Below, piece by piece: positions 6,227 to 40,793 of a DNA stretch of 48,623 nt. Under the pieces are notes generated by a model that made no database searches, had not been told where the DNA came from, and saw only the letters and a program-made list of their open reading frames with translations. Where the stretch lies: the IMG/VR virus record IMGVR_UViG_3300020576_004942; one strand, written 5' to 3'. The position numbers and the translations under genes were made by a program. Source of the stretch: a virus. Positions within the stretch are counted from its first letter, which is position 1. Every line of letters starts with the position of its first letter.

Positions 6227-8683
6227 ATGATACCTATCCAATCAGCCGACCGGGTCGTCACCCAAAATTCCAATGTTGGTCGTTCGATGAACTACCGACT
6301 GGACGCACGCAATCTTCGCCACATCGTCACGATGTTGCGGGATAGTGTTTATTCCAACAAAATTCTCGCGGTTATTCGTGAGTATTCAACCAATGCGCTT
6401 GATGCGCATACTGCCGCTGAGGAAGCGGGTATGATCGGCCGGAGGACACTTCCGATTGAAGTTCACCTCCCCACCAAATTTTCATCCGAATTGCGCATCC
6501 GCGACTTCGGCCTTGGGCTCACTGAACAGGAGATTGAAGAAATTTATATCAGTCTGGGTGAATCAACCAAACGCCAAAGCAATAAATTCGTCGGTTCACT
6601 TGGGTTCGGTAGTAAAAGCGCCTTCGCCTATGGTGATCGTTTCGTCATTACCTCTTGGAATTCAGGTCGCAAGGTGGTTTACGACAATGTTCTGGACGAC
6701 AATGTTCCGGAAGGTGCGCGCTGCGACATTATGGCTTCTGCGCCTTGTGCCCCGGACGAATCCGGCATTGAAATCTGTATCCCCATCAAACAACACGAAA
6801 TTTCTGAGTGTAAGCAAATTGCGCTCAATTTTTTCAAATATTGGACGACGTTTCCCACGTTGACGGGGGCAGACGCAGTTGAAATCAGTGAGGCCCTGGC
6901 GTTCAAAAAGAACAAGTCTATTTTCTCCGGCGAGAACTGGATCATCTATCCCACGACTAATAGTTACGGTTCGTCCAACAACAAGGGCATTGCGTTGATG
7001 GGCGATGTTCCCTATTCGTTGGACTGGGAATTAATCAAACGCAAACTGGTCACGGCGGGAACCATTAATTCCACCACCGCAGTTTTGTTCAATTTCATTC
7101 AGGCTAACAATGCCATTCTTACCTTTGATATTGGCCAATTGGAATTCTCCGTGTCCCGGGAATCCCTCCAATACACCGACTTTACTTGTCAGGCCATTTT
7201 TAAACGGGTAGAAACGATCCTCACCAGCATTCAGAAAATTATTGAAAAAGTCATTGCCGAAGCGGATACGATTTGGGAAGCCAAACGCCTATACGGGGTT
7301 ATTTTCAATTGTGGTTATGAATTGGGTGGAGAAAAGAGTGAATTCGGCGGCGAACTGCGTTTGCTTGAACCATATTTCAAGGGCCGGTTGAAGTGGAAAA
7401 ACATCTTGGTGGACAGTCAGTCATTTTCGGGAGTTCATAACTGGGAAGTGGATAAGGGTAAGACGGGAACCACTACTGACTCCTATCGGACTTACGACGA
7501 AAACTACCACGGAATTATGACTACTTTCCACGATGATCGTGGCAAGTTGCGTCAGGGATCACGTCGTTACCGCCGGCGCCGCAGTTATTATAGTGCGGAA
7601 GGCGTCATCACGCCTTCGAAGACCTCCGTGGTGTTGATTAACGACCTGGACAAGCCGCATGGATTTTTGACCATTGTGCGTTACCTTGTTCAACGGGGTG
7701 ACAGCTCAGCCATTAAACGGGTATACGCTTTGAAATTTGGTAAATCCGAAGTCAAGGACGCATTCTATAAAGAATATAATTTTGATACCGTCCCGGTTAC
7801 GTATGCTTCAGCCTTGTTGGAAACGGCTAAGAAATGGTATGCGACGATCAAGCCCTCTGCCACCCGCAACGGAGGCGCTCCGACTGGACCTTTGCCCGTT
7901 CGTTCTTTTTCTCGGGATGTCAATGGTAACAAGAAATTTACCAACCGACACTGGTCCAAACGGGATATTCTACTCAAGGAACTTAAAAAGGTGACTTATT
8001 ATGTTCCGGTGGACGGCGACTCAATCTTGACGGGCCGAGCGAATCGGTCCATCATTGAACCGTATCATTTCACGGAACATATCGTGGCGCTGGATAATCA
8101 CACCGATTGGTTCAAGGACATCGACGTAATTTATGGTATTCTACCCCGCACGGTAAAATCTAAATGGTTTACGGCCGCAGCCAAGGCCGGGCGCTTTATC
8201 AATCTATTCGATTATCTGAATAAGCAAGTATCAGCCATTGATCTAGCCAATCTTGCGGAAGCCCGGGCATATAAAGAATACACAAACCGCGTTTCAGGTT
8301 ATGTCGTGGATACTTTCATCATCAGTAAGGATTTTGCGACAAAATTACTCCCAAATTTGAAATTTAAGGACGGAGTTATTTATCCACTATGTCAGGCCTT
8401 TGCCGCTAGCCATTCGCAATTGCTTCCGGTGGATACGACCATTCAACAGCTGGGTTTTGTTATTACTATTCCTCCGGAAACCAAGGCAAAGACGGATTAT
8501 CGGGCTTTAGCCAAGGCCGCGAACACGGAATATCCGCTTATGAATTTGATTGGTGTTCACGTTTTCAATCGGAGTAGCACTCTGGACTCTAAGATGATTC
8601 AGGAAATAGCCCATTACATTAATCTGGTTGACGCTGACAAGGGATGTAAAAAGAAAATCTCCGTCGTTGACAAGGCTATTTAA
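6227..8683 (+). CDS. rIIA: GHKL (histidine kinase-like/Bergerat fold) ATPase domain protein, rIIA-like
   Basis: N-box EYSTNALDA (ExxxNAxDA), G1 box RDFGLGL (DxGxG) and G2 box GSLGFGSKSAF (GxxGxG) sit in the first 140 aa of an 818-aa protein. The size and the downstream partner gene match the phage rIIA/rIIB arrangement. Confidence 0.5.
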   Translation: MIPIQSADRVVTQNSNVGRSMNYRLDARNLRHIVTMLRDSVYSNKILAVIREYSTNALDAHTAAEEAGMIGRRTLPIEVHLPTKFSSELRIRDFGLGLTEQEIEEIYISLGESTKRQSNKFVGSLGFGSKSAFAYGDRFVITSWNSGRKVVYDNVLDDNVPEGARCDIMASAPCAPDESGIEICIPIKQHEISECKQIALNFFKYWTTFPTLTGADAVEISEALAFKKNKSIFSGENWIIYPTTNSYGSSNNKGIALMGDVPYSLDWELIKRKLVTAGTINSTTAVLFNFIQANNAILTFDIGQLEFSVSRESLQYTDFTCQAIFKRVETILTSIQKIIEKVIAEADTIWEAKRLYGVIFNCGYELGGEKSEFGGELRLLEPYFKGRLKWKNILVDSQSFSGVHNWEVDKGKTGTTTDSYRTYDENYHGIMTTFHDDRGKLRQGSRRYRRRRSYYSAEGVITPSKTSVVLINDLDKPHGFLTIVRYLVQRGDSSAIKRVYALKFGKSEVKDAFYKEYNFDTVPVTYASALLETAKKWYATIKPSATRNGGAPTGPLPVRSFSRDVNGNKKFTNRHWSKRDILLKELKKVTYYVPVDGDSILTGRANRSIIEPYHFTEHIVALDNHTDWFKDIDVIYGILPRTVKSKWFTAAAKAGRFINLFDYLNKQVSAIDLANLAEARAYKEYTNRVSGYVVDTFIISKDFATKLLPNLKFKDGVIYPLCQAFAASHSQLLPVDTTIQQLGFVITIPPETKAKTDYRALAKAANTEYPLMNLIGVHVFNRSSTLDSKMIQEIAHYINLVDADKGCKKKISVVDKAI

Positions 8684-8731: not shown

Positions 8732-9877
8732 ATGAGCAAATTAGCCATATCCCAAACTCCAACTACCATCACGGTCGTTGATCAAACCACCGCAAAGGTT
8801 TACACCATCACCAATTCTCAACCCAACTGGAGTAAAGTTGTGGAAGCTATTCGTGAGGAAGATAATGACGATGAAATTCTTCAAACCATTTCAGTCAAGG
8901 CTGCCGTCGAAAACTTTTCGCCCAACGGTTCCATTACCGTTTTTGGTAACGATGTCAAATACAAGGGCTTCGCTTTGGCAGGTCTGGATGTCGATCATTT
9001 GCTGGAAGCAATTCGCACCGGCAACAAGCGCCAGGCCAAGGCCCTGACCTCATTCCTGGAAAACAAGCAGGCCAACCCCTCCTATAAGGCCGTGGGTATG
9101 ATGTATAAGTTCCGCCAGGACAAGGGAATGCCCTTGACTGACGACGGACACTTCCTGGCCTACAAAGGCGTGCTCAAGGATTATTGGTCGCGCAATGCCA
9201 ATAAAACCACCATTGTCCTTCACGGCCAGACCAATGAAAATGGTCAAATCCTCAATCGTATTGGCGATTATATTGAAGTTGACCGCAAGTGCGTCGAAGA
9301 TGATCCCGCCAAATCCTGTGGTCCTGGTCTCCACGCTGGTTCGCTGGAATACGCAACTGGCTGGGGTGAACGGGTCATCATCGTCAAAATCCATCCGAAG
9401 GATGTCGTCAGTGTTCCGGATCACGAAGACAATAAGATGCGTGTCTGTGCGTATACCGTTGTCGGTGAGTGTGAAGGACGCATGAGCGAACACTTCGCCA
9501 AGGAATTGGACAATGATGTTGAATCGGAACCGGAGGGTGAATCCGAAGTATATTGTTCGGAGTGTGAGGAACTTGTTGATCCCGACGCCGAATTCTGCGA
9601 TAATTGTGGCGCTGAAGTTATTCCGGATGATGCGGACTCCGACCACGAATGTGAATGTGGTCACTCCACTTGTAAATCAGTGGTTGATGCGCCAGAGAAG
9701 GCCACTTTTAACAGCAAATATCATTACGACACCGGCTATCAGCGTGGTGTCCGGGAAGGTACATCCAAGGTCGCACGTCGGTATTACGAAGGCGACGAAT
9801 TGAAGCACACCAACGGGACGGCTGATTACATTTCCGGTTACAATGCCGGTTACAAATCCGCTCGTTACGGAAAATAA
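8732..9877 (+). CDS. acidic protein with C-terminal Cys-rich zinc-ribbon; possible rIIB-like partner
   Basis: 381 aa with CSECEEL...CDNCG and CECGHSTC motifs. The rIIB assignment rests on position only. Confidence 0.45.
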   Translation: MSKLAISQTPTTITVVDQTTAKVYTITNSQPNWSKVVEAIREEDNDDEILQTISVKAAVENFSPNGSITVFGNDVKYKGFALAGLDVDHLLEAIRTGNKRQAKALTSFLENKQANPSYKAVGMMYKFRQDKGMPLTDDGHFLAYKGVLKDYWSRNANKTTIVLHGQTNENGQILNRIGDYIEVDRKCVEDDPAKSCGPGLHAGSLEYATGWGERVIIVKIHPKDVVSVPDHEDNKMRVCAYTVVGECEGRMSEHFAKELDNDVESEPEGESEVYCSECEELVDPDAEFCDNCGAEVIPDDADSDHECECGHSTCKSVVDAPEKATFNSKYHYDTGYQRGVREGTSKVARRYYEGDELKHTNGTADYISGYNAGYKSARYGK

Positions 9878-10455: not shown

Positions 10456-11511
10456 ATGAGTACAGCTTCAATTCAAAAAATTTATAACATTCAGAAACAC
10501 CCCAATGCCGATTCATTGTCCGTCGCCAAGGTATTGGGTTGGCAGGTGGTATTTAACCACACGCAACACACCTACAAAGAAAACGATCTGGTCGTGTATG
10601 TGGAAATCGACTCTCTCTTGCCCGACAAGCCTGAGTTTGAATTCTTACGTAAACTCAACTTCCGAATCAAGGCAGTCACATTGAGGGGCGTAGAAAGCGC
10701 AGGTATTATATTTCCGCTGACCATCCTTGGTACTCCGGTTTTACACCCAATGACTTTTGAGGCAGTGGGTTTTAATCAGAATAAAGACGAAGCGCTTAAA
10801 TTTGAAGGCCTTGGTCAAGATGTCTCTGAGTGCATCGGCGCATCCCATTATACAAAGCCGGTTCCGGTGGAAATGGCCGGTGAAGCCTATGGTGGTCTCC
10901 CCGGTTTTCTGAAGATGACTGATGAAAAAAATTTACGTAGTTTTCCTGATACAATTAAAGCTCTAAAAGAGCAACCTTATTACATAACCCGAAAAGACGA
11001 TGGCACTAGCGCCACCTATTTCATCAATAATGGTGAGTTTGGCGTTTGTAGCCGCAATGTCCATCTCAAACCCAGTATTACCAATTTATTCTGGCGCCTG
11101 GCCGAAAAATATCAAATTGAAAAAGCGTTGCGGGAATTTTTCCCCAATCGTGATGTGGCTATTCAAGGCGAAATTGTTGGGCCGAACATCAATGGCAACC
11201 ATCTGGGTCTGAAAGAAGCCGAGCTTCACATTTTTAATGTGTGGTATATCAATGAACGGATGTATGGGAATATGGATTGCCTGTTAGATTTTTCCATCGC
11301 CACTAAAATTCCATTGGTGGAAACCCTTGAACTGGGCACCGCATTCAAATATGACTTGGACCAATTGATCCAAGTTGCCAACAAGCAAAAATATCCGAAT
11401 GCGTCTCCCGCTGAAGGGATTGTGATTCGTTCACAAAATCCCCTCCCCTGTTTACTCTTGGGCGGTTGGTGGTCAGGCAAGATAATCAATGAGAATTGGA
11501 AGGAAGAATGA
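10456..11511 (+). CDS. ATP-dependent RNA ligase with N-terminal OB/tRNA-binding-like domain (Rnl5/DraRnl-like architecture)
   Basis: Nucleotidyltransferase motif I is ITRKDDGTS (KxDG) and motif IV is PAEGIVIRS (EGxV). The N-terminal IQKHPNADSLSVAKVLGW resembles the HPNADKL motif of the Myf/EMAPII tRNA-binding fold. Confidence 0.6.
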   Translation: MSTASIQKIYNIQKHPNADSLSVAKVLGWQVVFNHTQHTYKENDLVVYVEIDSLLPDKPEFEFLRKLNFRIKAVTLRGVESAGIIFPLTILGTPVLHPMTFEAVGFNQNKDEALKFEGLGQDVSECIGASHYTKPVPVEMAGEAYGGLPGFLKMTDEKNLRSFPDTIKALKEQPYYITRKDDGTSATYFINNGEFGVCSRNVHLKPSITNLFWRLAEKYQIEKALREFFPNRDVAIQGEIVGPNINGNHLGLKEAELHIFNVWYINERMYGNMDCLLDFSIATKIPLVETLELGTAFKYDLDQLIQVANKQKYPNASPAEGIVIRSQNPLPCLLLGGWWSGKIINENWKEE

Positions 11512-16297: not shown

Positions 16298-17257
16298 ATG
16301 AAAATTAAGAGTACCCCTCCCGCTGATGTGGGAATTATCGTCGGACGTTTTCAAGTTCCGGCCCTCCACGAAGCTCACGTCGAACTAATTCAAACCGTCG
16401 TTGACCGCCATAAAAAGGTCATTATGTTCCTGGGTCTTTCCCCCGTCAAGACGACCAAGAACAACCCTTTAGATTACCAGGCGCGCAAGCAAATGGTGCT
16501 GGACAAATTTCCCCATATCAACGTCCTGTACATCAAGGATCAGAAAGAAGATGATGTCTGGTCGAAGAATTTGGACAGTCAGATTACCGATTTAGTCGGC
16601 CCTAACCAAACCGTCGTGCTCTACGGCGGCCGGGACGCATTCATTCCCCACTACACCGGAAGATTTCCCACACTGGAACTGGAACCTAAACGGGTCGCGT
16701 CGGGCAGTGAAATTCGCAAAGAAGTAGGTAATGCCACCAAGGGCACTGCCGATTTCCGACGTGGCGTCATCTGGGCCGTGGAAAACCAATACCCCACTTT
16801 TCATCCGACCTGTGATGTTTGTATCATTAATACCGCCAAGAACGAAATCCTCCTTGGTAAGAAACCCGGCGAAAAGGAATATCGCTTCCCCGGCGGCTTT
16901 GCCGACCCGGAGGGTGACAAGTCGATGGAGCAAACCGTGCGGCGTGAAGTGATGGAAGAATGCCCCGGAATGGAAGTGTCGGACCCGCAATACATCGGCA
17001 GCGCAATGGTTGACGACTGGCGTTACAAGGATGAAGTCAACAAGATTATGACGATGTTTTATATGGTGGAAATGGTCTATGGTGCGCCCAAGGCCGGCGA
17101 CGATCTGGCCGAAGTCCGTTGGTTTAGTATCTGTGAATTGATTCGGGACGAAATCCCGTTGGTAAAAAATCACAGGATGCTCCGGGAGATGGTTTTGAAA
17201 AATAAACGCTTCGTCGAATTGACGAGCGGTTCGATTGTGGACGCGGATTCGGTCTAA
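16298..17257 (+). CDS. nadM: bifunctional NMN adenylyltransferase / Nudix ADP-ribose pyrophosphatase (NadM-Nudix, NatV-like)
   Basis: The N-terminal nucleotidyltransferase has VGIIVGRFQVPALHEAH. The C-terminal Nudix box is GGFADPEGDKSMEQTVRREVMEECPG. Confidence 0.7.
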   Translation: MKIKSTPPADVGIIVGRFQVPALHEAHVELIQTVVDRHKKVIMFLGLSPVKTTKNNPLDYQARKQMVLDKFPHINVLYIKDQKEDDVWSKNLDSQITDLVGPNQTVVLYGGRDAFIPHYTGRFPTLELEPKRVASGSEIRKEVGNATKGTADFRRGVIWAVENQYPTFHPTCDVCIINTAKNEILLGKKPGEKEYRFPGGFADPEGDKSMEQTVRREVMEECPGMEVSDPQYIGSAMVDDWRYKDEVNKIMTMFYMVEMVYGAPKAGDDLAEVRWFSICELIRDEIPLVKNHRMLREMVLKNKRFVELTSGSIVDADSV

Positions 17258-26074: not shown

Positions 26075-27310
26075 ATGCCGCTACAAATTTCAACCCTGAC
26101 TGAATTACAGGAACGGCAACGGGTGGTCCCTTATCTATTCTCACCGGCTAACAATGAGATTTACACTCCGGTTGTGTTGGTGCGGAATATGATTGACAAA
26201 TTACCACCCATAGTATGGAGAAACCCAACATTAAAATTTGTTGATCCGACGTGTAAATCTGGTATATTCCTACTGGAAATTGTATTTCGATTATGGGTTG
26301 GTTTAAAGAAATGGGAACCGGATGATAAAAAACGGCTCACTCATATTTTAAAGAATATGGTGTATGGTTACGCCATTTCAAAAACGGCTGCGCTCATTAC
26401 ACGAAAATTATTGTATAATGACTGTAAGCATGAGGGAAACATTTCGGAGAAACTATTTATCGATGAGACAGGAATTAGTATGAAATTTGATGTAATTGTG
26501 GGCAATCCACCGTATCAGAAACAAGTGGGTCCTAAAAAAACTGAGCCGATGTGGCATAAGTTTGTGGAGAAGTCGTTTGATTATCTTAATGCTGGTGGAC
26601 ATCTATGTTTGGTTCATCCTCCTGGCTGGAGGGAAGCGGAGGGGAGATACAAAAAAACCGGAGAGTTAATGTTATCAAAAAACATTAATCATTTGGAAAT
26701 GTATAGTAAAGCAGAAGGCGTAAAAACTTTTAGTGCTAGTATCCCCTACGATTGGTATGTTATTAAAAATGTGGATAACACGGGGAAAACCTCGGTTAAG
26801 TTCCAGGACGGAACATCAAAAGTTTTAGATTTACGAAAGTTGCCGTTTATCCCGAACGGCGCATTTGACCAGATACAATCGCTGTTGGCAAAGCCGGGAG
26901 AGGAACGGGTTGAAATCTTATGGAACTGCGAATATCATACACAGCAACTTGATTGGATGTCTCCGAAAAAGACAACCAAGTTTAAGTATCCAATTGTCTA
27001 TACCATTCATAATGGAGATAAAGTAAATTTGTGGTATAGTTCTGAAAAGAAAGGTCATTTCGGGACTCCAAAAGTCATTTGGAGCAATGGCGGTATAACG
27101 ATGGGAACTATCGTTGACGATACGGGAAAATATGGGCTGTCTCAATTCGCTTATGCGATTATGGATAAAGTAGAAAATCTTGAAAATATCAAGAAAGCGA
27201 TGACTTCGGACAAATTCAAAAAAATGATTACTGAATCAACTAACGACGCTTCTATCAATCGTCGGGTGTTAGCATTGTTCCGAAAAGATTTCTGGAAAGA
27301 GTTTGTATGA
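26075..27310 (+). CDS. gamma-class N6-adenine DNA methyltransferase (TaqI/Eco57I-like)
   Basis: Motif X is TPVVLVRNMI, motif I is VDPTCKSGIFLLE, and motif IV is DVIVGNPPY. Confidence 0.65.
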   Translation: MPLQISTLTELQERQRVVPYLFSPANNEIYTPVVLVRNMIDKLPPIVWRNPTLKFVDPTCKSGIFLLEIVFRLWVGLKKWEPDDKKRLTHILKNMVYGYAISKTAALITRKLLYNDCKHEGNISEKLFIDETGISMKFDVIVGNPPYQKQVGPKKTEPMWHKFVEKSFDYLNAGGHLCLVHPPGWREAEGRYKKTGELMLSKNINHLEMYSKAEGVKTFSASIPYDWYVIKNVDNTGKTSVKFQDGTSKVLDLRKLPFIPNGAFDQIQSLLAKPGEERVEILWNCEYHTQQLDWMSPKKTTKFKYPIVYTIHNGDKVNLWYSSEKKGHFGTPKVIWSNGGITMGTIVDDTGKYGLSQFAYAIMDKVENLENIKKAMTSDKFKKMITESTNDASINRRVLALFRKDFWKEFV

Positions 27311-33570: not shown

Positions 33571-34014
33571 ATGAGTAAGATTATCAATTTTTTAAAAGGT
33601 CTGGATACCGACACCAAAGGGCGAAAGTTGGAGCAAATTATCGCCTGGTCCGATGCGGAGCTGGAAGAAAGCCACGATACGATTCAATGGCTTTTCCCTC
33701 TGAATGCGAGTAGTGCGTATAACATTGCTGCGCCGGTTTTGACGGACGCCGATATTGTGATTATGAAAACCGACGTTGCGGTCCAAGCAGGTATCTTGAA
33801 AGCATATGACCGATTCACCAAATTTTACAACAATCCTCAGTGGCTTACTCCACACAATCACAACTATTTGCGATTGACACGGATTCTTAAATGCCTTGGT
33901 CTGGCTGGTTTGGAAAAGGAAAAAGCCGTTCTGAAAAAGGTCTTGAACACTATCTATCAAAAATATGGTCCGGTCATTGGCCCGGTAACCAAGCGGTTTT
34001 GGGAGGAAGCCTAA
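33571..34014 (+). CDS. hypothetical protein
   Basis: 147 aa. Confidence 0.45.
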   Translation: MSKIINFLKGLDTDTKGRKLEQIIAWSDAELEESHDTIQWLFPLNASSAYNIAAPVLTDADIVIMKTDVAVQAGILKAYDRFTKFYNNPQWLTPHNHNYLRLTRILKCLGLAGLEKEKAVLKKVLNTIYQKYGPVIGPVTKRFWEEA

Positions 34015-34296: not shown

Positions 34297-34674
34297 ATGA
34301 AACTATTCATTCCCGCAATTGGGACAAAAATAAAACTAACTCTGGATTGGACTTTTACCGTTCATCCGGAATATCGCAATCACGATTTATATGAGTTAGC
34401 CGCCCAAAAAGAAATCGATGATTACTTATGGGACGGAAGTTCCCACCCCGCGATCCAGTTTACCATTCCCGCCGGCGTCACGTTATCCGTGGATCGGATT
34501 TATATCAAAAAACCTTCTCCCGACTACAATTCTGTCACTTTTCGGATTCCAAAAAAATGTTTAGGTAATCCGCCTCATATGAAATGTTTGGGTAATCCGC
34601 CCCATTTGACGGGACTACGCTTTTGGGTCAAGTTGGATGATGCGAATAAAATCGAAGGTGATATTATACCTTGA
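34297..34674 (+). CDS. hypothetical protein containing 9-codon in-frame tandem duplication
   Basis: 125 aa with the repeat KCLGNPPHM / KCLGNPPHL. Confidence 0.4.
   Translation: MKLFIPAIGTKIKLTLDWTFTVHPEYRNHDLYELAAQKEIDDYLWDGSSHPAIQFTIPAGVTLSVDRIYIKKPSPDYNSVTFRIPKKCLGNPPHMKCLGNPPHLTGLRFWVKLDDANKIEGDIIP
34555..34608 (+). repeat. 27-bp imperfect tandem duplication, in frame
   Basis: AAATGTTTAGGTAATCCGCCTCATATG followed by AAATGTTTGGGTAATCCGCCCCATTTG. Confidence 0.8.
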
Positions 34675-34706
34675 CTTATTCTAAATCCTCTGATACCATT
34701 CATCCT

Positions 34707-35321
34707 ATGAAAATGCGCATTGGCTTTGTCAGTAATTCAAGTTCTTCCAGTTTTTTGATCGGGTTGAAAAATAAACCCAAGACTAAAACTGAACTACGCA
34801 CCCTTATGTTTGGGGACATGGATGGTGAAGTCAGCATTTACGATTTGGAAATGTCTATTCCCGAAGTCGTTGAGCGTGTCTTTTCCGATTTACGGGACGT
34901 GAAACCCCTCACCGAAGCTGAAGTTTTAAAGGAAATCAGCAATTCCTATTTTCCGGGTTATCCCGAAGACAAATTCTCAGGCAACGCCTCCCAAGATTTG
35001 GAGAAGGAATTTATCAATCTTTTCAATGCCTCCCTAAAACCTGGGCAGAAACCCATCAATTCATTTTGCGATGACGCTGCGAAAACGCATCCGGAGTATG
35101 AGGAATTTTCACGGAAGCGTCAGGCTTTATTTCAAGTTGAATACGAACAGCGAGAAATTGAAATTCAGCTGGCTGCGAGAAAACACTTTGAGTCATTAAA
35201 GAAACAATTCGAAGGCCTTGAAGTTTATGCGTTGGAATATTCCGACAACAACGGCGAAAGCGTATTGGAACACGGCGGGATTTTCGAAGCCTTGCCCCAC
35301 GCCGTCCTCTCTCACCATTAA
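34707..35321 (+). CDS. N-terminal-tag family protein 1 (MKMRIGFVSNSSSSSF + unique acidic C-terminal domain)
   Basis: ATG at 34707 inside track ORF 34671..35321. It carries the conserved 16-aa N-terminal tag. Confidence 0.5.
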   Translation: MKMRIGFVSNSSSSSFLIGLKNKPKTKTELRTLMFGDMDGEVSIYDLEMSIPEVVERVFSDLRDVKPLTEAEVLKEISNSYFPGYPEDKFSGNASQDLEKEFINLFNASLKPGQKPINSFCDDAAKTHPEYEEFSRKRQALFQVEYEQREIEIQLAARKHFESLKKQFEGLEVYALEYSDNNGESVLEHGGIFEALPHAVLSHH

Positions 35322-35333
35322 AAGGAAAATAAT

Positions 35334-35543
35334 ATGCCCGTGTGTGGACCATCCGACCGTAAAGATGACGCTGATAAGGCGTTCAAGGAAATTGCGAAGC
35401 TATTATGTACAAAATACGGCGTGACCGACTTGACCCAGGAAGAAACTTTTGGGTTTTTTAGAAAGGAATTCAATGACCATCGGCAAAAGCTCCTCACCGA
35501 ACTGCGGGAAGTTTTTCAATGGGATTCCTTTAACTCATTCTGA
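35334..35543 (+). CDS. hypothetical protein (untagged)
   Basis: 69 aa. Confidence 0.4.
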   Translation: MPVCGPSDRKDDADKAFKEIAKLLCTKYGVTDLTQEETFGFFRKEFNDHRQKLLTELREVFQWDSFNSF

Positions 35544-35546
35544 ATT

Positions 35547-35693
35547 ATGAAAATGCTCATAGAATTTTATCTGGATGGTTATGAGACCGAAAAGGAAATG
35601 AAGGCGGCTTGTATTGAATATGTTGAAGAACAATTGAATATGTCCGCATCTTCGATCAAAGTTCTTTGGGTGGAGAAAGTCACGGGGGAATAA
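35547..35693 (+). CDS. possible small acidic protein (48 aa)
   Basis: Read by eye and gap-filling. Confidence 0.3.
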   Translation: MKMLIEFYLDGYETEKEMKAACIEYVEEQLNMSASSIKVLWVEKVTGE

Positions 35694-35694
35694 T

Positions 35695-35952
35695 ATGAAG
35701 TATCGTACAGGCTTTGTCAGCAATAGCAGTTCATCCAGTTTTATCTGTAAGGCAAAGGATTTAACCGATGAACAAATACTTAAACTTCTGAATTATCAGA
35801 ATAGTGAAGATAACACGGACGGTTGGAGTGTTTATCACAATGCGGTAACCGGCGAAGTTCATGGCTTTACCTCAATGGATAATTGCGCAATTAGTGAATG
35901 GGGCCGTCAGGAAATGGAAATCTATTCCAAACTAACCTTTGAGGATTATTGA
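35695..35952 (+). CDS. N-terminal-tag family protein 2 (MKYRTGFVSNSSSSSF...)
   Basis: GGGGGAA SD. The tag is followed by a unique 69-aa C-terminal region. Confidence 0.5.
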   Translation: MKYRTGFVSNSSSSSFICKAKDLTDEQILKLLNYQNSEDNTDGWSVYHNAVTGEVHGFTSMDNCAISEWGRQEMEIYSKLTFEDY

Positions 35953-35953
35953 T

Positions 35954-36418
35954 ATGATTAATAAATGGATATTCGTGATTGACACCGATGCGTATGCGGG
36001 TAATTTTGAGCGTGACTTATGCGCATATATCACCGGCGTTATTGGGGAGTGTGAGGTGGGGGATGAATTTGCGGCGCTCTATCGAAAAGAAACCGGCGAC
36101 GGCGACGGCGTATGGGATGGTCAGTTTGTTGATTACGTTGAACAACGTGAAGAATATGGTTGCGCAAGGCCCTGTAGTTGTTGGCCTAGCCCCAAACAAA
36201 AAGGCGCCGAGCATAACAATTCCGTGGCGATTTTCTTTAACAAAAAACCAACTTCCAAACTGATCGCCTTGATGAAAGAGCGTGCCGGTAAATTTGCCGA
36301 AGCAAAACGGAAGATTGCGGAGGAAGAAGATTTGTCTTGGGATAAAAATTTTAAGTTGACCATTCACGGCTTTCGCTTGGTCCAAGAAAAAACCACAACC
36401 GAAGAGGAAAATGTATGA
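35954..36418 (+). CDS. hypothetical protein (untagged)
   Basis: ATG at 35954 (MINKWIFVIDTDAY). Confidence 0.4.
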   Translation: MINKWIFVIDTDAYAGNFERDLCAYITGVIGECEVGDEFAALYRKETGDGDGVWDGQFVDYVEQREEYGCARPCSCWPSPKQKGAEHNNSVAIFFNKKPTSKLIALMKERAGKFAEAKRKIAEEEDLSWDKNFKLTIHGFRLVQEKTTTEEENV

Positions 36419-36726
36419 AAATAAGAAGCGGGTTCGTATCAAATAGTTCAAGTTCCAGTTTTTGTATTATGGGTGTCGTGTCCGACAATGAGACCATTGA
36501 TAAATTGGAAAGTAAATGGGAAGAAATGAATAAGTTGGGGCTAACGACCCAGAGCGGAATTTCCGAATATTATGAAGAAGTATTGCTCGGCGCCTCTGTT
36601 AGCAGACTGCGGGAGGATGAAACTCCGGCCCAGTTTAAACAGCGCATCGTCGCGGGTTTTAAAACCCTGGACGTGGAAATTAAAGTGGAAGACCTCAGCT
36701 GGTGTGTTGACGGCGGCCACGATTGA
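36415..36726 (+). CDS. N-terminal-tag family protein 3 (MKIRSGFVSNSSSSSF...)
   Basis: GAGGAAA SD plus the tag. Confidence 0.5.
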   Translation: MKIRSGFVSNSSSSSFCIMGVVSDNETIDKLESKWEEMNKLGLTTQSGISEYYEEVLLGASVSRLREDETPAQFKQRIVAGFKTLDVEIKVEDLSWCVDGGHD

Positions 36727-36737
36727 CGGTTAAACTT

Positions 36738-37334
36738 ATGAAAATTAGAACAGGCTTTGTCAGTAATTCCAGCAGCAGTTCCTTCGTGGTCCAACGCCGG
36801 GAGTTTAGTTTTGCCAAGATGGGGGAGGTAGTTTTACTTACACCCGAACAAGAAAATAAACTGGCGGAGTTTGGCTTTAAACGGGGCTATGTTTTTAGCC
36901 CATATGAAGTTCCGGCTAATAAAAAAGCTTGTTTGGCTATGGAAAAGGAATTCCAGAAACGGTCTATCCGTAAATTGACGGCGAAGGATTATGCGAATGG
37001 GAAGAAATTTGGACGCACCCGCAAGGAAGTTGAAGCGGATGCTAAAAATGGCCGCGAGCATTACGCGTGGGTATATGATGTAACCTGTAATCAAGACGAT
37101 ATTATCCAATTCCTATTGGAAAACGAAATTCCTTTTCACGCTAATGTCCATTACGACCACGAAACCTACATCTATATGGCCAAGGCGGACATCTTGGTTA
37201 TTGCGCAGAACTACGGCAATAAGTTTATGATGTATGATAGTATGATTCGGGAAGGGAAAGTGCCGGATGATGAATTGGGTAAGCCGGTTAAATTCGTTAA
37301 AGCGTCAGAGTATTTAAAGACCTTATCATTATGA
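36738..37334 (+). CDS. N-terminal-tag family protein 4 (MKIRTGFVSNSSSSSF...)
   Basis: ATG at 36738 within track ORF 36723..37334. Confidence 0.5.
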   Translation: MKIRTGFVSNSSSSSFVVQRREFSFAKMGEVVLLTPEQENKLAEFGFKRGYVFSPYEVPANKKACLAMEKEFQKRSIRKLTAKDYANGKKFGRTRKEVEADAKNGREHYAWVYDVTCNQDDIIQFLLENEIPFHANVHYDHETYIYMAKADILVIAQNYGNKFMMYDSMIREGKVPDDELGKPVKFVKASEYLKTLSL

Positions 37335-37648
37335 AAATTAGAACAGGATTCGTAAGTAATAGTTCCAGCAGTTCCTTCGTCATCGTCGCATCGCAGAAAG
37401 CCATCGATAGTGCGATGGCTACCCTTGACGATCAGGGTCAAGAACTGATTAAACACTATGTCGTGCGCCGAGCCAAAAAGACCAAGATCAATGGCGGGGA
37501 AGTTTTAATTGCGCATGGAGAAATTCAATCGGAGGAATTTGGTTATGACATCTATACGGATGACGATGACTACGAAAAGCCTCAGGAGGATTGGAATAAA
37601 TTTGTGGCAGAGGTTGGTAAGAACGGCGGCTTTACAGATGAATCATAA
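37331..37648 (+). CDS. N-terminal-tag family protein 5 (MKIRTGFVSNSSSSSF...)
   Basis: 105 aa. Confidence 0.5.
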   Translation: MKIRTGFVSNSSSSSFVIVASQKAIDSAMATLDDQGQELIKHYVVRRAKKTKINGGEVLIAHGEIQSEEFGYDIYTDDDDYEKPQEDWNKFVAEVGKNGGFTDES

Positions 37649-37650
37649 TT

Positions 37651-37845
37651 ATGAATAATAAAATTGAGTGGTGGGGCTACTTACACAGCAACGGGACAAT
37701 TCAAACCAAACGTTGGTTCGGTGATGTCCGGGATTATACAGAGGATTGTGAAAATAATCCATTTGTTATCTGTGTATGTCCGCCGTTCCAAGCAGAATCC
37801 CAGGAAGAAGCAACAAAAATTATTACGGAACGTTTACTAAAATGA
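37651..37845 (+). CDS. hypothetical protein (untagged)
   Basis: 64 aa. Confidence 0.35.
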   Translation: MNNKIEWWGYLHSNGTIQTKRWFGDVRDYTEDCENNPFVICVCPPFQAESQEEATKIITERLLK

Positions 37846-38423
37846 AAATTCGCACAGGATTCGTCAGCAACTCCAGCAGTAGCTCCTTCATTGTGAAACA
37901 GGGTGGTCCATTTGACTGCCCCATTGAAGTTGCGCATCATATGCTTATGGAGCGTGGTTGGCCTAATGACCGTGAGGTACTAGAAAACCTCATTCAGTTC
38001 ACGATTAGTGGTAAAATTAATGCCACGACCAATCTTCATTTTCGTTCAACCAATTACGATACCTTTATCTATCACAAGAAAGATGGACTGGGAATTTATA
38101 CCTCCAATAACATCACCTGGAAATTTCCACCCGGCGTAGATTTTGATCCGGAAGACGAAGGTTATTCTCAGAGCGAACACATAACTTTCACCAGCCTAGA
38201 ATCAGGCATAATTGGTCAACGCTTGTCGAATGAGACCGCCGATGACATCCTTGTCCAAACCGGAATAAATGTTGGTTCGGTGACTTATTGTAAAAAATGT
38301 TATACGAATGCTTGGTTGGAATATAAAGGCGCCGATTCACTTGTTACCTGCCCCATCTGCGAACATAGTTCATTTATCCGCCGTTACTCAGGACGCGGCA
38401 AGGATAAATGGGAAGTGCTTTAA
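37845..38423 (+). CDS. N-terminal-tag family protein 6 (MKIRTGFVSNSSSSSF...) with C-terminal zinc ribbon
   Basis: ATG at 37845 within track ORF 37776..38423. C-terminal CKKC...CPIC. Confidence 0.5.
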   Translation, partial: KIRTGFVSNSSSSSFIVKQGGPFDCPIEVAHHMLMERGWPNDREVLENLIQFTISGKINATTNLHFRSTNYDTFIYHKKDGLGIYTSNNITWKFPPGVDFDPEDEGYSQSEHITFTSLESGIIGQRLSNETADDILVQTGINVGSVTYCKKCYTNAWLEYKGADSLVTCPICEHSSFIRRYSGRGKDKWEVL

Positions 38424-38432
38424 CTTTCCTCT

Positions 38433-38459
38433 TGACATTTTATACAAGTGTGAGATAAT
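38433..38459 (+). promoter_or_regulatory. sigma70-like promoter (TTGACATTTTATACAAGT core)
   Basis: TTGACA (38433-38), 15-16 nt, GATAAT (38454-59). ATG at 38471. Confidence 0.5.
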
Positions 38460-38470
38460 GTCCGTAGATT

Positions 38471-38764
38471 ATGGAATACACCGTTAAAGTAATTACCGTG
38501 GATGAATTTAAAGCCTTGGTAGTAAAATACCTGCTCCACGACTGGCGAGATTACGAAAAACAAGACATCATTGAAACCTTGTTAAGTGACGGTTTTATGA
38601 AATTTGATGTCGAAAATCTTGGGAAATTTATGGAGTCTATGAAATGTAAAGTGTGGATGGCTCCGGTGGCCGTGGACGTTGGTGACTCAATGTTTTACTG
38701 GTTGGCCTCTGGTTCCAGTGCGATTCTTGTAAATAAAAAAGTAGTTGAACCGAAATTTGATTAA
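38471..38764 (+). CDS. hypothetical protein
   Basis: 97 aa. Confidence 0.45.
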   Translation: MEYTVKVITVDEFKALVVKYLLHDWRDYEKQDIIETLLSDGFMKFDVENLGKFMESMKCKVWMAPVAVDVGDSMFYWLASGSSAILVNKKVVEPKFD

Positions 38765-38919: not shown

Positions 38920-39993
38920 ATGAACAATAAAGCAAAATTAATGGTCAACGACCGCTTCAAAATCTTCCGGAGTGAAGATTACAATTATAATTTCGACTTG
39001 CTTTCCGGGACATTCATGCGTTGGGGGCGGACGCAGGAAGATGACCCGACGTGGAGTCCATTTGGTCCGGAAATTGCCGATATTGAAATTTCATCGGGGG
39101 CTGGATGCCCTATGTCATGTAATATGTGTTATAAGGGAAACCAAAAAGGAAATTCAGCGGAGAATATGTCTCTTGAAAATTTCAAATTCATTTTTGAAAA
39201 ATTTCCTAAATATGACGGAAATTTCTTTCTCTGTCAGGTCGCATTGGGGATAACAAGCATCGCTTCAATGCCTGACTTTTTCCCGATCTGCGAATATCTC
39301 CGGAGTAATAAAGTTATACCAAACGTTACCATTAACGGCGCCGATCCGATAACCGATGGTGAGTTGAAAAAATTAATATCGTTGATGGGCGCTATGGCAA
39401 TATCACTCAACAAGACCAATTTTGAGGCAGGATTAAACCTCATCCACAGATTCATTTCAGGTGGAGCAAAACAGATAAATGTACATTACGTTGTAAGTAG
39501 ACAAAGCGAAAAGTTTGCTTATACTCTTTGTGACGCATTCCAAAATGACGAACGTTTAAAAGGATTGAACGCGATTGTATTTTTGAGTTTGAAACCCAAG
39601 GAACGTGGGCAATTTTTGGATATTCTTCCAGAAGATGATTTTAAAAAACTAATTCGGCATTGCCTATCTAATGGCATTAGGTTTGGTGCGGACTCGTGTA
39701 GCGCTCATAAAGTTATCGGTAGTTTTGATTCCAATCAACATAAAATGTATGACCATTTGATAGAACCATGCGAAGCTTCGAAATTTAGTTTCTATTTTAA
39801 CAATGAGGGTAAACACTATCCCTGTTCGTTTTTGGAGGGGGAAAATAGAGACATCTGGAAAGATGGAATAGACCTGACCAAAATAACCGATTTCGTAAAA
39901 GAGGTGTGGAATAATACGTCGGTGGCAAAATTTCGTGATGATGTGACGACCAGCAATAAAAATGGCAATAATTGTTGTCATTATAAGATCTAA
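38920..39993 (+). CDS. radical SAM enzyme (CxxxCxxC) with C-terminal Cys-rich auxiliary region
   Basis: GCPMSCNMCY is the C-x3-C-x2-C motif. Further cysteines occur at CSAH, CEAS, CSF and NCCHYKI. Confidence 0.6.
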   Translation: MNNKAKLMVNDRFKIFRSEDYNYNFDLLSGTFMRWGRTQEDDPTWSPFGPEIADIEISSGAGCPMSCNMCYKGNQKGNSAENMSLENFKFIFEKFPKYDGNFFLCQVALGITSIASMPDFFPICEYLRSNKVIPNVTINGADPITDGELKKLISLMGAMAISLNKTNFEAGLNLIHRFISGGAKQINVHYVVSRQSEKFAYTLCDAFQNDERLKGLNAIVFLSLKPKERGQFLDILPEDDFKKLIRHCLSNGIRFGADSCSAHKVIGSFDSNQHKMYDHLIEPCEASKFSFYFNNEGKHYPCSFLEGENRDIWKDGIDLTKITDFVKEVWNNTSVAKFRDDVTTSNKNGNNCCHYKI

Positions 39994-40040: not shown

Positions 40041-40793
40041 ATGATTATTTACAAAGCAACTAACAAAACAAACGGAAAAATTTATATTGGAAAAACAATT
40101 AATTTGGAGAAAAGAAAAAAGGGGCATTTACGGGACTCTAAACGACCACGAACAAGATTTCATGCGGCCATAAAATGCTATGGGATAGACGGGTTTATAT
40201 GGGACATAATAAAAGAATGTGTTCCCGAACAATCCGATATAGAAGAAAGAAATTTCATTTCCTTGTATAATTCAATGGATGAGAGTGTGGGATATAATCA
40301 AACCGAAGGTGGCGGCGGAGGAAACACCTGGGAAGGAAACACTCACAAGGAAGAAACAAGCCGAAGATTAAGCAATTCTATTGGAAATTCGATATTACAT
40401 AAAAAAGCGCACCAATCTCCTGAATATATAAAATTGATAACTAGAATTAATAGAAAAAAAGCAAAAGATTCCACAATCTGTAAAAAGATAAGTGATGCTT
40501 TAAAAGGAAAATTGTTTTCGGAATCTCATAAAAAAAATTTGTCAATAGGATCGATGGGGAAAATTCTAACCGAAGAACATAGAAAAAATATTGGCGAGGC
40601 AACAAGAATTAGAATGTCTGTGAAAGAAAATAGAAAACGAATAAGCGACTCTTTAAAAGGTCGTGTGAGCCCAATGAAGGGGAGAAAAATGTCAAAAGAA
40701 TCTCGCCAAAAAATGAGCGATTCTCACAATAAACGAAATCAAATGAAACGTGAGTGTCCATTGTATCCGGAAATTCGGGTGGAAAATACATGA
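40041..40793 (+). CDS. GIY-YIG homing endonuclease (Seg-like, with NUMOD3 repeats)
   Basis: IIYKATNKTNGKIYIGKTINLEKRKKGH, plus repeated H-x-K-N-IS-x-x-LKG motifs. Confidence 0.75.
   Translation: MIIYKATNKTNGKIYIGKTINLEKRKKGHLRDSKRPRTRFHAAIKCYGIDGFIWDIIKECVPEQSDIEERNFISLYNSMDESVGYNQTEGGGGGNTWEGNTHKEETSRRLSNSIGNSILHKKAHQSPEYIKLITRINRKKAKDSTICKKISDALKGKLFSESHKKNLSIGSMGKILTEEHRKNIGEATRIRMSVKENRKRISDSLKGRVSPMKGRKMSKESRQKMSDSHNKRNQMKRECPLYPEIRVENT

Follow-up and report, generated by a model that had tools for sequence, protein, structure and literature searches.

Why should six phage proteins that share no homology in their bodies begin with the same sixteen residues? The question is raised by a gene array in a 48,623-nucleotide stretch of viral DNA (IMG/VR record IMGVR_UViG_3300020576_004942; this whole stretch is referred to here as the window), where the peptide MK[IYM]R[TSI]GFVSNSSSSSF opens six open reading frames (ORFs) on the + strand, and where a gene for a radical S-adenosylmethionine (SAM) enzyme follows the array. 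Our analysis suggests that this peptide, which we call the tag, is probably the docking and modification site of the adjacent radical SAM enzyme, such that one maturase would act on many protein substrates. A first-pass annotation of the sequence had proposed that the tag is a selected N-terminal recognition signal carried on hypervariable bodies, and had named three possible readers of that signal: a capsid-targeting pathway like that of phage T4, a vault-like protein shell, and the radical SAM enzyme. The general proposal is borne out by our results, and among the three mechanisms the last is the sole one that comparative genomics supports.

The six tagged genes (numbered 1 to 6 in their order on the strand; Table 1) were recovered both from the list of ORFs and from a six-frame translation of the window, in which the exact 11-mer GFVSNSSSSSF occurs six times, each time five residues after an ATG, and in no further copy. 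Five of the gene starts proposed in the first-pass annotation are correct, and the sixth, placed at 37845, belongs at 37842, where the ATG overlaps the preceding stop codon (ATGA); the proposed size range of 85-216 residues also has to be narrowed to 85-204, because the values of 215 and 216 came from upstream alternative starts. The array is tightly packed, with intergenic gaps of -4 to +47 nt, and four small untagged ORFs are interleaved with the tagged genes, as had been pointed out. Over the 16 codons of the tag, the six copies share a mean pairwise identity of 92.5% at the amino acid level versus 64% at the nucleotide level, and out of 240 codon pairs compared, 131 differ synonymously and 18 nonsynonymously, while the 48 nt just after the tag are only 29% identical among the copies. 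Because the identity of the protein so exceeds that of the DNA and most differences are synonymous, the tag peptide is kept by selection at the protein level, a conclusion that had already been drawn from the different codons used in each copy.

Downstream of the tag, the six proteins diverge completely, again in agreement with the original description. Their bodies could not be aligned, and profile-profile comparison of the six with hhalign, using profiles of their orthologues, found no homology in any of the 15 pairs (probability at most 3.7%). The 571 distinct tagged bodies that we compared fall into 176 sequence clusters, and the six window bodies belong to six different ones; the clusters of genes 2, 4, and 6 have 53, 9, and 14 members, respectively, and the body of gene 5 is a singleton. 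A domain common to all tagged bodies was sought with hhalign and rejected, as only a few clusters could be merged and these included none of the six window proteins. The zinc ribbon of gene 6 and the acidic composition of gene 5 are as first described. Known families offer little purchase on these proteins: no Pfam or NCBIfam model scores above its cut-off against the six proteins, the bacterial tagged family described below, or 150 diverse representatives of the tagged proteins (matches to RecJ_OB and GHMP_kinases_C occur in one member each and were treated as isolated), and a PADLOC scan of the six window proteins returned nothing above cut-off. The only PHROG that shares the tag is phrog_7397, whose function is unknown and which the product of gene 1 matches over its full length (E 7e-15). 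A protein identical to the gene 1 product is also encoded on a 125.5-kb JGI contig.

The first-pass annotation had recommended looking for the tag in other genomes, and its distribution proves to be very wide. A tag-only profile, built from the N-terminal 30 residues of our six proteins and run against 1.84 billion proteins at E <=0.001, retrieved 22,096 representative proteins after clustering at 50% identity. For all six window proteins, other phages encode orthologs that carry the tag; that of gene 4 in locus L068, for example, is 32% identical over 172 residues. The match lies at residues 1-30 in nearly all of the best 150 of the 22,096 hits. A second scan, with a degenerate DNA pattern for the tag, yielded at least 119 stretches of viral contigs, in which the copies are often arrayed in groups of two to six, and 93 stretches in prokaryotic assemblies taken at one genome per species. 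Throughout the DNA fetched, a sample partly selected with the motif itself, a methionine stands exactly six residues upstream in 722 of 761 occurrences of the motif, and none of the occurrences is internal. The consensus from the same sample is M1 K2 (I) R4 x G6 F7 V8 S9 N10 S11 S12 S13 S14 S15 F16 h h. Gly6 is 96% conserved, with Asp in its place in an Agrobacterium protein (locus L295) and in the database protein P0252, and Glu and Asp are absent from every conserved position of the tag. Full-text literature searches for the motif string and for combinations of phage with radical SAM, SPASM, and STAND, within the library searched, found no description of the tag or of the phage cassette.

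Two kinds of database entry deserve separate mention. Four proteins that carry two tags (P0241, P0245, P0246, and P0252) are read-through fusions of neighboring tagged genes in which the internal tag is preceded by M or V, which suggests either phages with recoded stop codons or errors of gene calling in the source data. The tagged genes of locus L130, a 178-kb contig assigned to 'Flagellimonas marina' (NZ_JBHSCL010000010.1), are nearly identical to those of Klebsiella Slopekvirus, and the length of the contig fits such a genome; it is probably that of a phage that contaminated a bacterial assembly.

Variation in the tag is not independent from copy to copy. At the variable positions, tags within one genome are more alike than expected, the fraction of identical cores being 0.576 within loci as opposed to 0.450 +/- 0.021 after shuffling, a value that none of 2000 shuffles reached. 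Some lineages have a variant of their own, such as FVANSSSSSF in all four tags of locus L226 and LVSNSSSSSF in all three tags of locus L286. This is the pattern expected if all the copies in a genome coevolve with one partner.

The identity of that partner is indicated by gene neighborhoods. We searched viral contigs with the radical SAM enzyme alone and took the 80 best loci with flanks of up to 10 kb; at least one tagged gene lies within 10 kb of the enzyme in 65 of them. Those 65 loci together hold 261 tagged genes, as many as 13 in one array and all on the strand of the enzyme, and a looser motif rescues at least two further loci in which every tag carries a lineage-specific variant. When all + strand ORFs of the 74 non-identical enzyme loci were clustered, tagged proteins emerged as the only recurrent neighbors of the enzyme, being present at 62 loci, with the next family at 9-11; no other conserved cassette gene was found in these 74 loci, and no head or scaffold gene recurs there. 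Approached from the side of the tag, the enzyme is present in 44 of the 119 viral stretches (among the matches listed) and in 49 of the 93 genome stretches fetched by tag DNA. The median distance between tag and enzyme in these stretches is about 390-470 nt, and the enzyme is therefore usually the adjacent gene. In phages, the enzyme family and the tagged genes are each other's only conserved neighbors.

The same association can be followed among phages that have been isolated. Of 50,697 phage records, 172 contain the enzyme, and these belong to Slopekvirus, RB16/RB43, and Karamvirus-type phages and to Vibrio phage D479; a tagged family present in 174 records shows genus counts equal to those of the enzyme. 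Vibrio phage D479 has a tagged gene 1.8 kb upstream of the enzyme gene. In Slopekvirus (L120 4001-8371) and in RB43 (L297, 68445-72844), a conserved protein of about 738 residues, ORF119c of RB43, is encoded between the two tagged genes.

The enzyme itself gives a further indication of what the tag may be for. It belongs to phrog_7293 (E 1e-74), and its CxxxCxxC motif aligns with the cluster motif of bacterial homologs that match the Pfam family Radical_SAM. Against bacterial enzymes encoded next to tagged genes, it is 27-29% identical over nearly the full length (pairwise E 3e-24 and 3e-28), and 39 positions are invariant between the window enzyme and the bacterial enzymes, including the cysteines and a distinctive N-terminal segment. 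The bacterial homologs also match the Pfam SPASM family and TIGR04085; the window enzyme keeps three aligned cysteines (C260, C284, and C302) and a terminal CC and is without the CxxCx5Cx3C block. The closest relatives of solved structure by profile are SuiB (E 2e-15), SkfB (6e-9), PqqE (2e-8), and anSME (3e-4). The window enzyme scores below every curated family cut-off, with a faint match to NrdG (E 0.004), and the bacterial homologs have weak NCBIfam matches to many peptide-maturase models, none above cut-off. On the strength of these sequence comparisons, we would place the enzyme in the SPASM group and not in the PflA/NrdG group.

The tag-enzyme pair is not confined to viruses. The scan of prokaryotic genomes found a bacterial tagged family, single-copy and 131-139 residues long, of the form MKIRNGFVTNSSSTSF...GW-COOH, in hosts as different as Veillonella parvula, Acetatifactor, Lachnobacterium, Sulfuricurvum, Verrucomicrobia, Terriglobales, and, on plasmid pAt, Agrobacterium. 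Wherever flanking sequence is available, as in Veillonella, Lachnospiraceae, Sulfuricurvum, Verrucomicrobia, and Agrobacterium pAt, the tagged gene lies downstream of a gene for an Avs2-like STAND NTPase, and a homologous radical SAM/SPASM gene starts directly at its 3' end or overlaps it. These operons have four to six genes, always including the radical SAM/SPASM gene, in the order metallo-beta-lactamase (MBL)-fold gene (at some loci), Avs2-like STAND NTPase, a protein of about 135 residues, tagged gene, radical SAM/SPASM enzyme, and often a protein of about 310 residues; their STAND proteins have a trypsin-like effector domain or a SMEK N-terminus. The STAND proteins match the PADLOC models of Avs2 with E-values of 1e-17 and 1e-15 and the NCBIfam model of Avs2 with 5e-10, all of which are far below the curated cut-offs. 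These Avs2-like STAND operons, with the bacterial pair inside them, lie in defense or mobile islands. At our operon loci L137, L177, L149, L176, L121, L298-L301, and L295, the MBL gene, where present, is Avs1a/LmuA-like, the protein of about 310 residues is M1E1E6-like, and the tagged protein has about 137 residues.

For these operons, the nearest described system, and the only related one that the literature searches brought up, is the KpAvs2 operon, in which Avs2 is accompanied by Avap1, a protein of the radical SAM type, and by Avap2 (Bechon et al. 2024, PMC11564622). Avap1 has a pocket that is not viperin-like and is needed against phage T2 and not against SECphi18, Avap2 binds Avs2 and was found by HHpred to be similar to DUF6375 (PF19902), and about 5% of Avs2 homologs carry such accessory genes (PMC11564622). 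In the bacterial tag operons, too, a radical SAM protein and small accessory proteins accompany an Avs2-like STAND NTPase. They differ in their trypsin-like or SMEK effector, where KpAvs2 has an Mrr nuclease, and in their MBL-fold gene, and the paper mentions neither a conserved N-terminal motif nor phage homologs (PMC11564622). With HMMER, which is less sensitive than HHpred, PF19902 matched none of the tagged proteins, the neighboring small proteins, or the 150 diverse tagged proteins. Judged by gene content and published description only, the bacterial tag operons look like relatives of KpAvs2. The conserved operon seems to be an undescribed or partly described defense system, perhaps of the KpAvs2/Avap type.

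Predicted structures suggest how a single peptide could be accommodated by so many bodies. We examined AlphaFold models of two tagged families. The first, family A, is that of the gene 1 product, whose C-terminal part contains the conserved motifs YSDNNGE, LEHG, and SHH-COOH; its homologs number in the hundreds and have in common the tag, the motifs YSDNDGE and LEHG, and a histidine as the last residue. The model of family A has a mean predicted local distance difference test (pLDDT) score of 93.8, and that of the bacterial tagged family 85.9. In both, residues 13-20, the SSSF end of the tag and the hydrophobic residues that follow, form the first strand of the sheet, while residues 1-10 average a pLDDT of 51 and 49, respectively; the most conserved part of the tag is modeled with low confidence. 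Neither of these confident models has a known fold: a search with the family A model against PDB and BFVD found no fold match, and its profile found no match among PDB sequences. The models suggest that the tag is half anchor, as strand 1, and half exposed peptide. The first-pass annotation had allowed that the tag might turn out to belong to a folded domain shared by all six proteins; residues 13-20 are indeed the first strand of the body in the two models, but no domain common to the six was found.

Taken together, the class of the enzyme, its adjacency to the tagged genes, the strictly N-terminal position of the tag, models in which residues 1-12 are exposed, and the concerted variation of tags within genomes lead us to favor the view that the tag is read and modified by the enzyme. 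Residues 1-12, probably exposed and flexible, would dock into the enzyme, where the invariant K2 and R4 could serve recognition, and a radical reaction at a C-H bond, in a side chain or in the backbone, of the Phe/Ser/Asn stretch would then introduce a post-translational modification, with F7-V8-S9-N10-S11-S12 as the likely reaction zone. Candidate reactions include a cross-link, the oxidation of serine to an aldehyde (formylglycine), and epimerization. Residues 13-20 would hold the tag in place by forming the first beta-strand of each body. A single enzyme would mature all six paralogs, applying to folded proteins the logic of the pathways for peptides that are made on ribosomes and modified after translation (RiPPs), and the variable bodies would carry different activities.

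That a radical SAM/SPASM maturase can serve several substrates with a shared recognition sequence is already known from RiPPs. The relatives of the window enzyme include leader-guided maturases of RiPPs and proteins, among them SuiB with streptide, SkfB, PqqE with PqqA, MftC, and anSME with sulfatase, with which it is homologous by profile. SuiB makes a Lys-Trp cross-link in streptide. As in such systems, the enzyme lies beside co-oriented genes whose products have a conserved N-terminal sequence and a variable remainder. Unlike short precursor peptides, however, the presumed substrates here are folded proteins of 80-280 residues whose bodies form at least 176 unrelated clusters; what is conserved lies at the very N-terminus and is also the likeliest site of modification; and the setting is mainly viral, with neither a protease nor an exporter. 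The single maturase gene beside up to 13 tagged genes also recalls the prochlorosins, in which one ProcM serves about 30 ProcA peptides. SPASM enzymes that make triceptides (three-residue cyclophanes) act on aromatic-x-X motifs such as FxS, which F7-V8-S9 of the tag would fit. In both of these cases the difference is again that the substrates here are proteins, and XyeB, GrrM, and FxsB are absent from the best 25 NCBIfam matches of the bacterial enzyme. What would be new are the diverse folded-protein substrates, the tag at the extreme N-terminus, the large scale of the viral setting, and a mirror module in STAND immunity.

Several points weigh against modification of the tag by the enzyme. 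The whole case rests on gene neighborhood, phyletic pattern, and enzyme class. Because the window enzyme has no Pfam match and, compared with the bacterial homologs, a truncated SPASM half, the type of its activity is uncertain. About half of the stretches fetched by tag DNA show no enzyme, which is weak evidence because the majority of them span less than 10 kb. The tagged genes of Slopekvirus and RB43 lie about 20 kb from the enzyme; in RB43, they are ORF116c and ORF121c, and the enzyme is ORF169c. The matching genus counts in isolates could reflect mere shared ancestry of three related genera, and for that reason the phyletic match is weaker evidence than the metagenomic neighborhoods. Concerted variation of the tags could stem in part from duplication within lineages. 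Finally, because residues 13-20 lie in the folded core of the models and C-terminal motifs recur in a subset of families, the tag may be partly structural.

Alternatively, the tag may dock the enzyme without being modified, so that the bodies recruit targets (host or phage proteins, nucleic acids, or metabolites) or regulate the enzyme. This adaptor role would explain the same linkage evidence, and diverse bodies that each have conserved orthologs in other phages are what one would see in specificity modules; the requirement for Avap1 of KpAvs2 against some phages only (PMC11564622) fits it as well. We nevertheless regard it as unlikely, for the known relatives of the enzyme (SuiB, SkfB, PqqE, and anSME) modify the peptide that they bind, and the near-invariance of ten consecutive residues, including the serine run, exceeds the usual needs of docking.

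Another possibility is that the tag serves the folding or assembly of the proteins that carry it, either as the first strand and a polar loop of a shared minimal core or as a Ser/Asn-rich polar-zipper strand for homo- or hetero-oligomerization of the paralogs, with the enzyme linked to the tagged genes in some other way. The placement of residues 13-20 in both models is in keeping with this idea, as is the module of beta-strand, S-D-x-D-G-E loop, and beta-strand with a C-terminal His, Trp, or Tyr that is shared by family A, the bacterial family, and one phage family. Loops like S-D-x-D-G-E occur in 8.8% of tagged proteins versus 0.65% of control ORFs, and endings of the form G-[GAT]-x-[WYHFR] are ten-fold enriched, at 13% versus 1.3%; the WCVDGGHD end of gene 3 is an example of this C-terminal GG-aromatic/His motif, which is common to a subset of families. 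Family A moreover has invariant Asp, Glu, and His residues that are enzyme-like and that, with its C-terminal His, hint at a site for a metal or ligand beside the tag. Yet the six window bodies and most of the 176 clusters are without homology to one another, the C-terminal motif is absent from two of the six window proteins, and the most conserved residues, 1-12, are not confidently placed in the fold. A structural role would also leave the strict N-terminal position and the linkage to the enzyme unexplained, and no known fold has such a motif. We therefore consider this explanation improbable.

The two remaining mechanisms of the first-pass annotation fare much worse. The T4 internal proteins IPI, IPII, and IPIII and Alt carry a short conserved N-terminal peptide on polymorphic small proteins. 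If the tag worked in the same style, it would load polymorphic proteins into the prohead for later ejection, and both the resemblance to these proteins and the T4-like early region in which the array lies, with rIIA/rIIB and an RNA ligase, make the comparison a natural one. The tag, however, has no Glu or other acidic residue and no hydrophobic-x-Glu site for a prohead protease, single tagged genes occur in chromosomal and plasmid STAND operons of bacteria that have no capsid genes, and the gene that recurs beside tagged genes is that of the radical SAM enzyme and not a head or scaffold gene. Capsid targeting is thus very improbable. It is just as hard to credit that the tag loads cargo into a shell made by the MVP-like protein of the window. 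That protein is genuine, with matches to MVP_shoulder (Pfam, E 7e-18) and Vault_3, and MVP-like homologs (32-46% identity) are encoded close to tags or the enzyme at three viral loci, L019, L026, and L274, and at L138, a contig of a Promethearchaeota metagenome-assembled genome. Such genes are nevertheless found at 4 of about 290 tag or enzyme loci with flanks of up to 10 kb, as against the enzyme in 44/119 and 49/93 of the tag-fetched loci, and the bacterial tag operons have none; RB43 and Slopekvirus may lack one as well. The protein of about 738 residues between the tagged genes of Slopekvirus and RB43 was considered as a possible MVP link and rejected, since it has no similarity to the MVP-like protein of the window.

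Other known motifs were considered as well. The R4-x-G6-F7 of the tag is superficially like the RVxG[FYW] of glycyl-radical enzymes, and the faint NrdG match of the window enzyme points the same way, but such a site is made unlikely by the spacing of R-x-G-F, which is off by one residue, by the replacement of Gly6 with Asp in some members, and by an enzyme that appears to be of SPASM type and not of PflA/NrdG type. A TIR betaA-strand (FISxSxxD), a PP-loop (SGGxDS), the P-loop of low-molecular-weight phosphatases, DHH, a pyruvoyl or intein-like self-cleavage site, and an N-glycosylation sequon were all rejected for want of supporting matches and in view of the diversity of the bodies.

If the enzyme does modify the tag, what might the array be for? 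A role in phage-host conflict, by counter-defense or by mimicry of a host module, is plausible because Avs2-like operons contain the bacterial pair and the phage array belongs to an early, accessory part of the genome, which here also holds rIIA/B, an NAD-salvage pair, and methyltransferases. More tentatively, and with rather more doubt than confidence, we propose that large phages possess a protein-level analog of the RiPP pathways, in which one enzyme modifies a universal tag on polymorphic folded effectors (2-13 per genome and more than 22,000 clusters), that the same pair is used by, or mimicked from, STAND operons of the Avs2 type, and that the array encodes proteins of counter-defense or immune mimicry that would need the radical chemistry for their activity or stability.

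Modification of the tag would have consequences beyond this locus. It would be among the largest unrecognized viral systems of post-translational modification, with thousands of families that have no Pfam model. It would also explain what the radical SAM accessory genes of Avs2-type operons do, tie a phage cassette to a bacterial immune module, and offer biotechnology a short tag that can be genetically encoded to direct the enzymatic modification of proteins. Because some of the phages concerned, such as RB43, RB16, the Klebsiella Slopekviruses, and the Cronobacter and Enterobacter Karamviruses, are cultivable, these ideas can be tested directly. Even apart from the chemistry, the combination of tag and enzyme provides an annotation rule for many hypothetical phage proteins.

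Table 1. Features of the window discussed in the text, with positions counted from its first nucleotide
Feature	Position	Strand	Length (residues)	Remarks
Tagged gene 1 ('family A')	34707..35321	+	204	N-terminus MKMRIGFVSNSSSSSF
Tagged gene 2	35695..35952	+	85	MKYRTGFVSNSSSSSF; body of 'MDNF/C' type
Tagged gene 3	36415..36726	+	103	MKIRSGFVSNSSSSSF; C-terminal end WCVDGGHD
Tagged gene 4	36738..37334	+	198	MKIRTGFVSNSSSSSF
Tagged gene 5, acidic	37331..37648	+	105	MKIRTGFVSNSSSSSF; start overlaps gene 4 stop
Tagged gene 6	37842..38423	+	193	MKIRTGFVSNSSSSSF; C-terminal CxxC...CxxC zinc ribbon
Radical SAM enzyme	38920..39993	+	357	CPMSCNMCY = CxxxCxxC; shortened SPASM/twitch-like C-terminal half
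Untagged interleaved ORF	35334-35543	+	69
Untagged interleaved ORF	35547-35693	+	48
Untagged interleaved ORF	35954-36418	+	154	phrog_23621
Untagged interleaved ORF	37651-37845	+	64
ORF between array and radical SAM gene	38471..38764	+	97
Predicted sigma-70-type promoter, near consensus	38432..38459	+		TTGACA, 16 nt, TG-n-GATAAT; 11/12 consensus matches
rIIA	6227-8683	+
rIIB	8732-9877	+
RNA ligase	10456-11511	+
NMNAT/Nudix-like	16298-17257	+		NAD salvage pair
Nicotinamide phosphoribosyltransferase	17281-18702	+		NAD salvage pair
MVP-like protein	20397-22955	+	852
T5orf172/ResIII helicase-like protein, then Eco57I/N6-type DNA methyltransferase	23866-27310	+	735; 411
OGFr_N-like protein	33571-34014	+	147
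Gene directly before tagged gene 1	34297-34674	+
GIY-YIG homing endonuclease	40041-40793	+		group I intron-type

Within the array region, it is uncertain whether the interleaved untagged ORFs are members of the system: in other loci, none of them has a homolog near the enzyme except the 69-residue ORF, which has one in L289. The 97-residue ORF between the array and the radical SAM gene has no family match, and other cassettes have no conserved counterpart of it. Between the array and this ORF and the radical SAM gene lies the predicted promoter, which is a consensus match only and comes from a region where promoter-like sites are in total no more numerous than in shuffled sequence. The gene directly before tagged gene 1 has a product with a short tandem duplication, KKCLGNPPHMKCLGNPPHL, and the protein encoded just upstream of the array has a domain like OGFr_N, the N-terminal domain of the opioid growth factor receptor (Pfam, E 1e-16).

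Farther from the array, the window, with rIIA, rIIB, and RNA ligase, is an early or accessory region of a T4-like phage. Its nicotinamide phosphoribosyltransferase is recognized by PHROG with an E-value of 7e-149, and RB43 has a gene similar to the NMNAT/Nudix-like gene that precedes it. The homing endonuclease (TIGR01453, E 6e-20) directly follows the radical SAM gene, and in Vibrio phage D479 (L302 8103-8831) a homing endonuclease gene likewise abuts the radical SAM gene.

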